Position numbers: made by a program | Shown here: piece by piece, positions 3,001-9,000 of the stretch | Layout: each line of letters starts with the position of its first letter | How positions within the stretch are numbered: the stretch's first letter is position 1 | IMG/VR virus record: IMGVR_UViG_2531839664_000032 | Reading direction: 5' to 3' (one strand) | Origin: a virus | Taxonomy: Duplodnaviria; Heunggongvirae; Uroviricota; Caudoviricetes | Length of the DNA stretch: 28,751 bases

Positions 3001-6000
3001 AGAGTGAACAGCTTGTTGTGAGAGGCCGCACTATGAGACTTCATCATATTTCATTTATGGACAGTTTTAGCGTGGAACCGGTTTCCGGCGGACTGTTGGA
3101 TCGCCTTAGTGCAAGAGGGCATCGCCTTCTCGCAGAAAATCTGGAGATACAGCTTAACAGAGGCCATACTTTTTTGCAGGCATTCCGTTTATATATGGAA
3201 CAGAGCCGTGCAACCCCATGTACGCGCCAAAACGTCAGTAGTGCAATACAAAACAAAATTAACTCTCATGCATTTACTGTTAGTCATCAAGACTTTTCCT
3301 GTCATGAACAACACCTGAATTGCCCGATAACATTATGCATTCCTGAAACTGGTGTTTTTGTCAGAAATGCAAAAAACTCAGAAATATGTTCATTATATGA
3401 CCACAATGCACTCACTGAACTTATCCGACGCAACGCTCCACACCCTCTCAGCCGTGAACCCTTTGTTCCGGAAATGATTGTCAGCAAAGATGAATGCCAT
3501 TTTAATCTAATAGAACAATATTTTTGCATATTAGCCACACAAAATATATGCACTAGAATTTGACTGTATGGTTCGATTTAAATGTTGCAAAATTAATTTT
3601 ACTAGTTATTGCCATCTATTTCATACTCCCTAATTCTTGATACAATCTGTCTGTCAAAATAGTAGATTAGATCGAACTTATATTACAGCTATTTAGTTTC
3701 TAAAATGGAATTTTTAACGTTTTATACTTCACATTACAATCTGTACCATAAGCCTCCTCAGCGAGGTTGCCTGAATACCCTGTCGTGCCCATTTTTCCAT
3801 CGGACGCAGTTGTCTGCTCTCTCGAACTGCTGGCAATAAAAATCAACCAGACAGCTTGATGTCCGTTACATGCAGGACTAATCACGATTGGTTACCGTTT
3901 ACAAAACTTGCGTAACATTGGAGGAGAACGAATAATATTCTCTAGCTGGTACGCGTTCCATAGCGAAACGGGCAAGGTCCAACAGCAAGAGCTGAAACTC
4001 AGGGGGATTTATCAGTCGATTTATTCGCCATGGATGAATCACGCTGTACGGTTATGGTAGCTCTTAGCGACAAGGCATAATCATCAGTACACCAATGTAA
4101 CAACCGTTGAAAAAGACTCATTATTTTATGAACCAGCCATCCCATTTCCAGAGTGGTAAATATGATTTGTTAAAGTGTAACAGTACTCTGCGTAGCCTTT
4201 TTAGATTCATAGTTTAATGTTTCTAAATACATTAAATTGCACTATAAGAGAAAGACATAATGTGAGGATAAAAATGCCATTTTCAATAAAAAGTATTTTT
4301 TCAGGACACACTTGGCATCAACCTGAAATATCTAGGCCTATAGCAGATAAATCATCTACTAAAAATTGTATCTTAGACTCAACAACATGCAATGTAGATG
4401 GCTTTACAGTGTTTAACAGAAGATCCTGTAGTTTTGATATGCGTCCTCCCGGAAGCGCAGACAGAACTCCACAACTGAGATTATCAATATCAGAAGTCGC
4501 ATGGATGTCAAAAATAATAGAGACAGAGACAAATAATACAAACAAATCATAGCTATTAGCCCAGAAAAGAGTTGGTACACTAGCCATGAATAACTTCCTA
4601 ACAACTTGATTTTTTAGTTATTTTTTTCTTCATTCTTGAAAAAGGATGCCCCGAAAGGGTTCCAGAGTTCGATTTTCTGCGCTTCTGCAAATAATCAAGG
4701 GGTTACAAAGTGGTTGCCCCTTTGTTTTTAGTGCTCTTGGTATACCCATTGGTACATTTAGCGCAATACCATCTGGTATCACTTAAAGACACGAAAAACA
4801 ACTTTTTATCTTTTTGTTTCGCTCAAATTAGTATAAAAAGCCGAACAACAAACAATAAAAAACCATTAACATCAATAGATTATGATGGCTTAAATCTAAA
4901 TAATAGGCTATATAATACTGCAAGACACAACACATGCTGTCACTATGAGTCAACTATTTAGATGATATTAGTGACCTGTTTCAGAGCATTAGCGCAAGGC
5001 GATTCTTTGTCTTCTTGCACTAATTTTTTGTCATAAAAATGTTCCTAGCACTGGGCATCAATATCGCAGGTCAGAAAGAGCTCCTGGGGATGCGGCTGGC
5101 CGAAAATGAAGGGGCGAACTTCTGGTTCAATGTGCTGACTGAACTGAAAAACCGCGGTCTGAACGATATCCTCATCGCCTGTGTGGATGGCCTGAAAGAA
5201 TTCCCGGAGGCCCGCATCCAGTTATGCATCGTGCATATGGTGCGCAACAGCATGCGCTTCGTGTCATGGAAGGAATACAAAGCCGTCACTCGCGACCTGA
5301 AAGCGATTAGCCTCCCACAGAAGAGGCAGGCCAGCAGGCACTGGAAGCGTTTGCTGCGACCTGGGACTGCCGCTATCCGCAGATAAGCCGGTGCTAGCTG
5401 TCAAACTGGACTAACTTGGCGACGTTTTTCGCTTATCCGGCAGATATCCGCAAAGTGATCTACACAACGAACGCCATCGAGTCGCTGAACAGTGTGATCC
5501 GGCATGCCATCAGGAAACGCAAGGTGTTCCCGACGGACGAGTCAGTAAAAAAAGTGGTGTGGCTGGCAATCCAGGCCGCGTCACAGAAATGGACAATGCC
5601 GTTAAGGGACTGGCGAATGGCAATGAGCCGCTTTATTATCGAGTTTGGTGACCGTCTTGACGGTCACTTTTAAGAAAAGGCATTTACACAGAATCCTAAA
5701 CAGGCTCACAGGCCTCTAATCATCCACATTGTAAAGATCCTTTGTTGTAAGTAAGATCTGGTACCCTAATAATATCAAAAGGATTAAAATCATCACTGCA
5801 TCCTTCCACGAGGCATTTCATTGCTCGTAGATCACCATATAGCTCTGAAGAGTGATGCGGACATAGCAGATTATAAACTTTACATTTCGAATCTTCTTTG
5901 CCTTGTCTACTTTCCTCAATTTTTACTTTCAATGAATGCAGAAAAAAAAGATCCCTGATATAACTATCCCTATCCTCTATCGTCATTCCCGCCCTCAGCG

Positions 6001-9000
6001 CTCCGACAACCTCATCAGTATTTTCATTTCTCACCTCAAATACACTATTTCTCTTATCCATCAGCCCACTTACAAAAGCACTTAGCTCTTGAAAAATTTC
6101 CTCAAGCTCATTATTATTTCTGGCACATGAATATATAGAGACCATAACATCAAGTTTATCTTGTAATTCAGGAGAAAGAAAGTGATTATGATTAAGCTCA
6201 CTTACTGATTCCGGAGTCGAAGGGTTACCTCTTCCTGATACATACATCCATGAATAAAGATTTGCTGAAGAACCACTTGTTGGTAACATATCAAAACCCC
6301 CTTAACAAATAAATCCATAAATATTATTGCAACTAATATATCTGGATAAAAATATTATATCTTACTTAATACTACACTAATAAGATCCAGCTTTCCTCCG
6401 TGATAAGATTGCATGACTTGATGTTCACTCCATGAAATATCAGAAACATTATAAGATGATATATCTATTGGATTAAATTCATTTCTCATACGATCATATA
6501 AAACATTTGTTTCTGTTGTATCAACAAAAAGAATTCCTTTTTTCTCCAGTCTGTCAAACATATCGTAAATAGCCTGTTCAGCTTGTGCTGGTAATGATGG
6601 AATATCCAAAAGAGATTCCCCATTTATTTTATTCATTCTAATACCAATAACATTTCCATTATCATTATATATTTTCTCTGCACTCCCGGAACCATAATAC
6701 TGATTGAAACAACGAACTTCGCTTGTCACCTCTTCATGGCTTTGAGATATAGTAAACATCTTCAACACTTTTGTTGTATCTTCCATATCTTCATACACGA
6801 CAGCATTACCACCTTTACCAATAACATTACCTGGCACGGGTGATTTATTGTTGCTAACCCTCGGCAACTCTGACTGAGTATAATCCGCTGGAGGTAACTC
6901 CGGCTGCGCATAATCCACTGGAGGTAAATCAGGTCTGTTCGAATGAACAGAGCCTCTTTCTATAGTCGTGCTCACTGGCGATGTATTCAGCATAGCCTCA
7001 ATTTTTCTGCTAATCTCTCCCTTAGGCCATCCCAACCTGTGCAACAGATTAGTAAAACAACCACTATGACTTTCTCTTGTAACGCAAAACTTATTATCAG
7101 TGACCACAACACGATATGTTCTGTTGCCAACCGTTACTTGCGTCCCGCTATCAGAGTGAACAGCAGCATCCCTTACAGAGGATAAAACACGATTATCAGG
7201 CGAAGTCAGGTTTCTGGTTAAAGAATTCCATGAACATCCCAAATTTATAGAAGAGGGCGATAACATACATTTCAACCTTCAAAATAAACCTATCTAATTA
7301 TTCCTAACAGACATCCCCCATACATGACAACAAAAACCGGAGCCGGACTCCGGTTTTTGTGAAGCTATCGGGTTACTTCATTTCGCCAATATTTTCCCAC
7401 TTCCCGTCAGCACGCAGGATTTGCAGCGGTCTTACTACACACTGACCCGAGGACGAAAAAAGAGTTCGGGCTGGGAAGAGACAGAAGAGTAGCAATTTCA
7501 GAAGCATTCACACCAACATTGAGCTTTTCAGCGAAAGTGGGCACGAATCATTGCTGGACAGGGTTAAAGGCACTGACTCAATCACTCTTCATACGTGGCT
7601 TGATCGATATGAAACAATCCTCAGCTAGAGGGGGAGCAAGCCGAAAACATTACTCGACTACGCCAGCAAAATCAGGGCAATTCGAAGAAAATTGCCGGAC
7701 AAACCGCTCACTGACATATCAACGAAAGAGGTGGCAGCAATGCTAAACACCTACGTCGCAGAAGGTAAAGCGGTTTCCGCAAGAGTAATCAGGTCAACCC
7801 TTGTTGACGTTTTTCGAGGGGCAATAGCCGAGGGGCATGTGGCAACGAATCCAGTAACAACAACCCGTGCAGCAAAGTCAGAAGTAAGGCGCTCAAGGCT
7901 GACAGCTAATGAGTATGTCGCTATTTACCATGCTGCTGAGCACCTCCCCATCTGGCTGAGGCTGTCAATGGATTTAGCTGTCGTTACAGGGCAGAGAGTG
8001 GGCGATTTGTGCAGAATGAAGTGGTCAGACATAAACGATGGTCATCTTCACATTGGACAGAGTAAAACAGGAGCCAAAATTGCCATTCCGCTGGCTCTAA
8101 CCATTGACGCACTCGACATCTCACTGGTTGATACACTACAGAAATGCAGGGAGGCCAGCAGCAGTGAAACAATAATCGCATCAACCTATCACGAACCACT
8201 TTCTCCAGCCACAGTATCACGGTATTTAACAAAGGCGCGAAATGCATCCGGGATCTCGTTTGATGGAGACCCACCGACATTTCATGAACTACGTAGTCTG
8301 TCCGCGAGGCTATATCGGAACCAGATTGGCTACAAGTTTGCACAACGTCTTCTTGGACATAAATCTGATTCAATGGCGGCGCATTATAGGGACAGTCGCG
8401 GGCGGGAGTGGGACAAAATTGAAATCGGATAATGATTTTATTTTGACCAATAATGACTTACCAGATTTAACAACTTGATATTTAATAAGATTTTGAACGA
8501 ACAACTTCCATGTCAGAAGGAGGATAAAATCACAAAAACACATTAAAAATCATTATGTTATTTATACAATTGATTAAATGATAGACTGCAAAACGCGACA
8601 AAACACTACATTTAGAGTCACAATTAATCAATGAGTTAGATGTGATTAGTGACCTGAGACAGAGCATTAGCGCAAGGTGATTTTTTGTCCTCTTGCGCTA
8701 ATTTTTTGTCATCAAACATACAGCCAATCAGAAGAGCATAAAGCTGCCAAGCATTATATGTCTTAGTTTTATGCTCATTTTCATTAAAAATATATATAAT
8801 AAGACTAATATCAGTATAAAATATTTATAACACTTAGAGTAAAAATGTAATCAGCTTATACAACCAACAATAATTAAACTATAAAAAACAATAACAGAAA
8901 CATTTATAATTTATTTTAAGTGTTCAAGCGATAAACTGGTAAATTTAAAAACTTCATTTTGAGATCTAAGTCACATCAATCAAGCATTCAAACAGTTATA

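Follow-up and report, generated by a model that had tools for sequence, protein, structure and literature searches.

The window analysed here is a stretch of 28,751 nucleotides (nt) from the IMG/VR virus record IMGVR_UViG_2531839664_000032, and our subject is the region between positions 4543 and 8716, where relics of phage attachment (att) sites and a decayed integrase gene lie around nleF and nleH1-2, genes for effectors of the type III secretion system (T3SS). The whole window is inside one lambdoid prophage inserted in ompW (the Sp9/CP-933P/"PPompW" family): in the annotated record an ompW fragment is found ~1.1 kb to the left of the window and intact ompW just to its right, and the resident prophage's own xis and frameshifted int are at the far right, adjoining intact ompW. 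Bases 4000-9500 are 100% identical to the chromosome of Escherichia coli O121:H19 (NZ_CP022407.1) and 99.7-99.9% identical to O157:H7, O103 and other genomes of enterohaemorrhagic and enteropathogenic E. coli (EHEC and EPEC). The left 11 kb of the window constitute the exchangeable effector locus of the resident prophage, downstream of its tail-fibre genes (11442-12755, minus strand), and carry nleG-family genes, espM1, nleF, nleH1-2 and nleA. In EHEC and EPEC, dozens of type III effectors are located at the att-proximal ends of lambdoid prophages, and the growth of these clusters is only partly understood. Tobe et al. reportedly defined the effector loci in 2006.

Attachment-site relics around nleF and nleH1-2

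The elements of the region are given below from left to right. The right-hand attachment site is termed attP* and the integrase pseudogene next to it int*; IHF is integration host factor, and IS denotes an insertion sequence.

4543-4760, plus strand: fossil attP of a serT-integrating lambdoid phage, from alignment to serT prophage junctions
4761-4827, plus strand: host-derived flank, the ybhB/bio side (B' side) of attB-lambda, from alignment to K-12
4828-4842, minus strand: lambda-type common core TTAGTATAAAAAGCC, which is GCTTTTTTATACTAA in reverse complement, short of one T/A
4843-4981, minus strand: lambda/Sp3-type P arm (81% identity to lambda, 82% to the Sp3 attR, 73% to HK022)
4982-5038, plus strand: sib/tI hairpin copy 1, weakened, aligned to the sib of lambda and HK022
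5039 to ~5700, plus strand: IS256/Mutator-family transposase fragment (RefSeq; Pfam PF00872, profile positions 184-281 and 320-377 of 379)
5720-6289, minus strand: nleF, T3SS effector (RefSeq; Pfam NleF_casp_inhib)
6355-7266, minus strand: nleH1-2, T3SS effector kinase (RefSeq; Pfam OspG_kinase)
7305-7444, minus strand: 3' remnant of a tail-fibre assembly (tfa) gene, with its last 23 codons, stop and terminator hairpin, from identity to 11375-11513
7444-8432, plus strand: int*, HK022-like integrase pseudogene (tblastn; HK022 Int residues ~28-355)
8433-8501, minus strand: P' arm of attP*, with three arm-type sites (8431-8459) and the H' IHF site, top strand TATCAAGTTGTTA, from alignment to HK022 and lambda attP
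8502-8522, minus strand: core of attP*, CAACTTC/CATGTCA/GAAGGAG, with predicted yfaT-site specificity, from sequence shared with yfaT sites
8523-8657, minus strand: P arm of attP* (79% identity to HK022, 74% to lambda)
8658-8716, plus strand: sib/tI hairpin copy 2, intact, an inverted repeat
9091-10416, plus strand: nleA (RefSeq), cargo between attP* and the resident tail-fibre genes

The left site (4761-5038) reads as an attR-type hybrid, P-O-B' followed by host flank, such as a lambda-type integration would produce. The stretch 4761-4839, from the flank into the core, aligns with the ybhB side of K-12 attB-lambda at 82.8% identity over 87 nt with one 8-nt gap (E 1.4e-21), the host flank itself being 67 nt long. 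The lambda P arm plus sib, core included, is matched by 4824-5038 at 81% over 216 nt (E 5e-52), and from core to sib there is 82% identity with the genuine attR that prophage Sp3 of Sakai has at ybhB. These E-values rule out a chance resemblance to lambda; moreover, CGCTCAAATTAGTATAAAAAGC at 4820-4841 is unique in the window and none of 100 shuffles matched it. A preliminary description of this DNA had proposed a core, a B'-like flank and a P arm at 4808-5038 and had called the left side attR-like, and the alignments with lambda attP and E. coli attB bear out both the elements, far above chance, and their order of P arm, core, B' and host flank. The same ybhB flank adjoins the attR of Sakai Sp3, and two phage genome records carrying attR together with ybhB-bio DNA, DN1 and vB_EcoP-720R6, match the window over flank and P arm; DN1 is annotated as a bio-transducing derivative (lambda-bio).

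In the left P arm, the P2 site (TGTCACTAT, 4938-4946), an H1-like site (AGTCAACTATTTA, 4948-4960, with one mismatch to the IHF consensus) and the P1 site (ATTAGTGACCT, 4967-4977) occur in the lambda order and spacing, and the heptamers of P1 and P2 are conserved; the arm and IHF site names are those that we take to apply from established knowledge of lambda attP. Except for one missing A, the 15-mer TTAGTATAAAAAGCC at 4828-4842 equals the lambda core TTAGTATAAAAAAGC read as its reverse complement. Set against the 15-bp GCTTTTTTATACTAA, it keeps the 7-bp overlap GTATAAA intact, but its T/A run is one base short, which changes either the C core-type site or the spacing; the missing base would leave a 6-bp spacer. 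The first sib copy folds at -17.2 kcal/mol, compared with -23.7 for lambda. The left attR is degraded in three ways, in its shortened core, its H1 mismatch and its weakened sib stem, and because the core has lost a base it is probably inert today. Homology to lambda ends at ~5038, where the IS256 fragment starts. A scan of viral contigs with a 36-mer of the left P arm retrieved only more copies of the ompW prophage with IS insertions or deletions, and neither an intact ancestor nor an attP form. An IS66-family element (ISEc8/ISCro1) sits inside the ybhB-derived flank, at 4792-4799, in O157:H7 and some other lineages; the 8 nt that the two BLAST pieces around it share agree with a target duplication.

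The right site (8433-8716) is a complete, unrecombined attP in the order P'-core-P-sib. Positions 8378-8711 match the HK022 segment from the 3' end of int through attP to sib with an E-value of 1.6e-72, in agreement with the earlier proposal of a second P-arm copy following a P' arm downstream of int. The three arm-type sites of the P' arm directly abut the int* stop codon (8430-8432), and the P arm contains P2 (AGTCACAAT, 8616-8624), H1 (AATCAATGAGTTA, 8626-8638) and P1 (ATTAGTGACCT, 8645-8655). The second sib copy folds at -28.7 kcal/mol (z = -7.8). The core of attP* is unique in the window and is unlike both that of lambda and that of HK022; it has CAACTTCCATGTCA in common with the attL of an O111 E2855 prophage in yfaT (DUF1175), whose intact int abuts yfaT, and CTTCCATGTCA in common with the unoccupied 3' end of yfaT in K-12 (11 nt identical). 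We read attP* as yfaT-site specific, and its polarity is fixed by the position of nleA between attP* and the tail-fibre genes. The site looks structurally intact and competent; with int* dead, any action would depend on a yfaT-type Int provided in trans.

The pseudogene int* shares 82% of its amino acids (aa) with HK022 Int and 67% with lambda Int (tblastn), and the nucleotide identity of 7432-8711 is 84% to int-attP-sib of HK022, Gally and mEp235 and 68% to lambda. The decayed lambda-like int that had been placed at 7440-8432 is indeed decayed, but it is closer to HK022 than to lambda. It has lost its first ~27 codons, being joined at codon ~28. The reading frame shifts once, near 7500-7527, and is broken by one in-frame TAG at codon 89; none of the six catalytic residues (R, K, H, R, H, Y) is missing. 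The complete open reading frame (ORF) of a functional recombinase of the lambda Int family, with its N-terminal arm-binding domain, is not present, as the homology starts at ~residue 28 and is interrupted by the frameshift and the stop, and RefSeq lists the gene as a pseudogene. The longest ORF within it (7692-8432, plus strand, 246 codons, TTG start; Pfam Phage_integrase) is predicted to encode part of the core-binding domain and the complete catalytic domain with all active-site residues.

Between the left site and int* there are only the IS256 fragment, nleF, nleH1-2 and the tfa remnant. The IS256/Mutator fragment, whose N-terminal half is missing and whose remainder is frameshifted, is common to the O145:H28 PPompW. 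The tfa remnant (7305-7444) and the 3' end of the intact tfa at 11375-11513 share 92.9% identity (E 1e-55). The homology to tfa stops at 7444 and that to int starts at ~7438-7444; tfa' and int' meet in a clean, illegitimate joint with a microhomology of at most 3 nt at 7442-7444, and the identical junction is found in more than 440 complete genomes of several serotypes. The gene content given for this interval in the preliminary description stands, with 23 instead of ~28 codons of the tail-fibre gene and an int joint at codon ~28 instead of ~27. A diverged copy (96%) of int'-attP*-nleA occurs in the IMG/VR record UViG_2534681674_000028 (L023 3908-6088), with a ~1.3-kb insertion at window position ~7318; at least two sequence lineages therefore carry the relic, each with this tfa'::int' joint. 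Inside nleH1-2, a 30-nt tandem duplication (80% identical) at 6863-6922 gives a repeated 10-residue segment in the N-terminal region.

A third relic lies at the left edge of the region and is not annotated in RefSeq. Positions 4634-4689 correspond to the 3' ~56 nt of the tRNA-Ser gene serT and are matched at 82-87% in all 5426 of the 5426 E. coli genomes searched. Strain Z1323CEC0014 carries a tandem pair of serT prophages in the order int-arm'-core-arm-cargo, and the window aligns with the junction of this pair from ~4543 to 4760, with two internal gaps; serT prophages carry the cargo end adjoining the tRNA. The parts that can be recognized are an int-side arm (with a gap of 52 nt), the 3' part of the tRNA, a terminator hairpin and a cargo-side arm with TTGGTAYA repeats (with a gap of 11 nt). 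Since the alignment runs to 4760, this serT-type attP relic abuts the ybhB flank, and their joint falls at ~4755-4761, where both parental sequences are AGCNCAATAC-like. ARAGORN detected no intact tRNA at the relic, and Rfam no relevant RNA family; elsewhere in the window, a weak, sub-threshold Rfam hit to CssrB at 1985-2095 (minus strand; 27 bits, where the gathering score is 76; E 0.033) is probably due to chance. To the left of the relic, the ORF at 4274-4552 (plus strand) is a hypothetical protein in RefSeq, has no Pfam hit and is labelled as the T3SS effector EspO (OspE family) in the O145:H28 PPompW record LC567818; its stop coincides with the point where a serT-type int would be expected.

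Two att sites that do not belong together

The right P arm plus sib is a direct repeat of the 142 nt at 4897-5038, at 77% identity. Over the stretch from core to sib, the left copy is 81-82% identical to lambda and Sp3 and 73% to HK022, the right copy 79% to HK022 and 74% to lambda, and the identity between the two copies is 69%. On these values the two P arms are assigned to different lineages. The overlap sequences also differ, being GTATAAA with an attB-lambda flank on the left and CATGTCA of the yfaT type on the right. Site-specific integration, like tandem insertion at the same site, needs one shared overlap sequence; since these two overlaps differ, the left and right sites are not the two ends of a single prophage, and they form no tandem at one site. 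A same-site tandem prophage array was rejected on this ground, as GTATAAA and CATGTCA are not identical.

The preliminary description had envisaged a single lambda-type prophage that lost its body by one deletion, leaving int' and an att site on one side and attR on the other, with the adjacent P' and P arms as the junction of a same-site tandem. Some of the architecture does speak for it: the succession flank-B'OP-cargo-tfa' ... int'-P'OP-next cargo has the polarity expected of a tandem pair, there is a single clean junction at 7442-7444, and a real tandem junction of such a form exists for the serT prophages. However, the overlap and core sequences are wholly different (GTATAAA with the attB-lambda flank against CATGTCA/yfaT), int* is HK022-like (82% aa, against 67% for lambda) and the P arms are of different lineages (69% to each other), such that we consider this account highly improbable. 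A single deletion is compatible with the clean joint. The P'/P arrangement next to int* agrees with an unresolved attP, the other option offered at the time, but not with a same-site tandem junction.

Assembly of the locus

With a probability of roughly three in four, we read the region as a stack of relics of three phage integration modules within the effector locus of the ompW prophage, which would have grown by serial accretion of "tail fibre-cargo-att" ends via illegitimate recombination. The alignments directly give the homologies and the architecture, together with the mismatch of the cores and the positions of the junctions. They show three att relics of three specificities, one of them a used site with host flank, and two illegitimate joints. 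Read from right to left, nleG' and nleA, followed by the unrecombined attP* and the truncated HK022-like int*, would represent a former integration module of the yfaT type. The normal order in phages is tail fibre-cargo-attP-int, on which grounds int*'-attP*-nleA-nleG'-tail fibre is taken as the module of one phage. Being HK022-like, with its own attP unrecombined, int* reads most simply as the integrase of the nleA/tail-fibre side, and it is unlikely to be that of the nleH/nleF remnant.

Beyond the illegitimate joint at 7442-7444 would come the right end of a different prophage, one that used the lambda site, comprising the tfa 3' end, nleH1-2, nleF, the IS256 fragment, sib, P arm, lambda core and B'. 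As this end finishes in an attR hybrid with 67 nt of ybhB-side flank, it appears to have been integrated by lambda-type site-specific recombination. The serT-type attP relic would come next, followed by more effectors. Each "tail fibre-cargo-att" block may once have been the end of an independent phage, and the blocks would have been joined when nested, adjacent or recombined prophages underwent illegitimate deletions or recombination. The host flank could have entered either via an aberrant excision of the lambda-bio type or by integration into a host-derived copy of attB already present in a prophage. The only present-day role that we infer for the region is the delivery of effector genes, the cargo genes being its functional content.

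Several points weigh against the accretion of three modules. A history is not uniquely readable from one end state, and no intermediate was found, nor a lambda-site prophage with tfa-nleH1-2-nleF-attR at ybhB, nor an effector locus with an unoccupied attB-lambda. An intact close relative of int* was not found in the 5426 E. coli genomes (best match 85-87% at the nucleotide level). In sequence, the order of int, attP and cargo in the window looks no different from the junction of two yfaT-type prophages in tandem. The flank measures just 67 nt, and all E. coli attB flanks examined are 83-87% identical to it; GACACG, the variant in the window, was absent from the five loci retrieved with a degenerate flank pattern in a scan of the genome collection, which were all E. 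coli-level loci with GGTATT in its place. Given the core that is one base short, the source phage may have used a slightly different site.

Within the accretion reading, the arrival of the ybhB flank can be told in two ways. The nleH/nleF phage could have integrated into a host-derived copy of attB-lambda, a fourth "attB-in-prophage", located beside the serT relic, and one deletion running from the guest's tfa to codon 28 of the host prophage's old int would then have removed the guest body, attL and the B-side flank, with the effectors staying behind. This course is possible, and we propose it tentatively. The same prophage family contains three other host-derived att segments of ~100-300 bp and 81-87% identity, in two of which phages have integrated (PMC8112680); the ybhB flank is similarly short (67 nt) and diverged (83-87%), it adjoins another att relic, and one integration plus one deletion suffice to create the tfa'::int' joint. 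On the other hand, neither an unoccupied BOB' copy nor a ybhC-side flank was found in the prophage (a locus of 48.7 kb) or in other genomes, and Nakamura et al. report no such site (PMC8112680). Alternatively, the nleH/nleF phage might have resided at the chromosomal attB-lambda and left it by an imprecise, lambda-bio-like excision, or undergone recombination with a second prophage, such that attR and a little ybhB-side DNA were carried into a phage genome and joined there to the serT-type att module. The DN1 and vB_EcoP-720R6 records, with attR and ybhB-bio DNA, are precedents for this route, Sp3 is a lambda-site, effector-carrying prophage of the same pathotype, and there is a possible AGCNCAATAC microhomology at the serT-arm/flank joint. 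However, the flank measures only 67 nt, in contrast to the kilobases of the known lambda-bio phages, and the tfa'::int' joint needs additional, separate events. We propose this route just as tentatively, as about equally possible.

It could also be asked whether the att relics are not inert scars but sites still active in recombination, used as landing pads or as hot spots of rearrangement. In attP*, all arm-type sites and the H1, H2 and H' IHF sites are kept at the level of HK022, the sib hairpin is intact and 11 nt of the core are identical to the yfaT attB; in addition, intact Ints of yfaT specificity exist in O111 strains, where a yfaT-type Int has the accession WP_000533670.1. Nevertheless, the int of attP* itself is dead, the lambda-type core is one base short with a 6-bp spacer, and no rearranged variants using the sites were seen among the genomes sampled, those found being IS- or deletion-derived, all of which makes present activity quite improbable. 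A combined scenario, in which the lambda-site nleH/nleF phage entered a host-derived attB-lambda copy in another prophage, a single deletion stripped its body and the yfaT-type attP is still usable by co-resident yfaT-type integrases, seems unlikely to us. If true, it would be the first direct sequence record of a prophage-in-prophage integration ending in permanent effector capture, and the intact yfaT-type attP would allow further rearrangement.

Under the accretion of three modules, the used lambda attR with its host flank, next to two dead attP modules of other specificities, would be a concrete and datable trace of how the nleH/nleF block came in, namely as one end of a phage integrated by lambda-type recombination, and the three relics would point to a repeated replacement of integration modules. 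This bears on how att fragments and effectors accumulate, and is useful for reconstructing the evolution of effector loci and for annotating prophage boundaries, since internal att sites and a pseudo-int could mislead the programs that call such boundaries. The O145:H28 and O111:H8 versions of the locus are deletion derivatives of the arrangement in the window, which is consistent with the suggestion that the Sakai-type locus of seven effectors is the ancestral structure (Nakamura 2021, PMC8112680).

Comparison with known systems

Host-derived attB sequences, 81-87% identical to the chromosome, have been reported in the effector loci of PPompW and its relatives as attB-in-PP_1, attB-in-PP_2 and attB-in-PP_3, and the mechanism of capture of these segments was stated as not known (Nakamura 2021, PMC8112680). 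The relic at 4761-5038 shares with them the prophage family, the effector locus and a short, host-derived att-flank segment of ~83-87% identity. It differs in being an attR hybrid, that is, a used site, and not an intact attB with both host flanks, since a P arm stands on its other side; its origin is ybhB/attB-lambda, which that study does not report (PMC8112680), and two attP relics of phage origin lie alongside. RefSeq annotates the degraded int, and the figures of Nakamura show it (PMC8112680), whereas a literature search yielded no description of the lambda attR relic with its ybhB flank, of the yfaT-type attP or of the serT-type attP. Two pieces of the YkgJ family were observed separately: a gene that directly follows serT where a serT prophage of E. 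coli ST130 has its cargo end (L010 3182-3511), and a fragment just outside ompW beside the resident prophage (L001 40731-40820). The source of attB-in-PP_2 is ykgJ/ecpE (Nakamura 2021, PMC8112680), and the two pieces may be further host-derived att fragments.

In comparison with the lambda attR at ybhC-ybhB, as in Sp3 and DN1, the left relic has the same order of ybhB flank, B', GTATAAA, C, P2-H1-P1 and sib. Effector cargo including a paralogue of nleH lies directly inside both this site and the attR of Sp3, a lambda-like prophage at ybhB-bioA in Sakai with the cargo nleB2-nleC-nleH1-1-nleD. Unlike the lambda attR, however, the relic is found inside the ompW prophage and not at ybhB, it has only 67 nt of flank with an 8-nt gap, the T/A run of its core is one base short, its sib stem is weakened and its b-region side is cut off by the IS256 fragment.

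The right-hand module is contiguous in homology with int-attP-sib of HK022, from int codon ~28 through P', core and P to sib (84% nt, 82% aa), with the arm-type and IHF sites conserved and the catalytic residues kept. Its overlap is CATGTCA (yfaT), where HK022 has TTCACCT, and its int lacks the first ~27 codons and carries a frameshift and a stop. With the tandem junction of the serT pair in Z1323CEC0014, the region has in common an order of int, attP, cargo and tail fibre that is identical in form, but the att sites that flank it have no common core. The region is a genomic scar of a known kind, and not a new system or mechanism.

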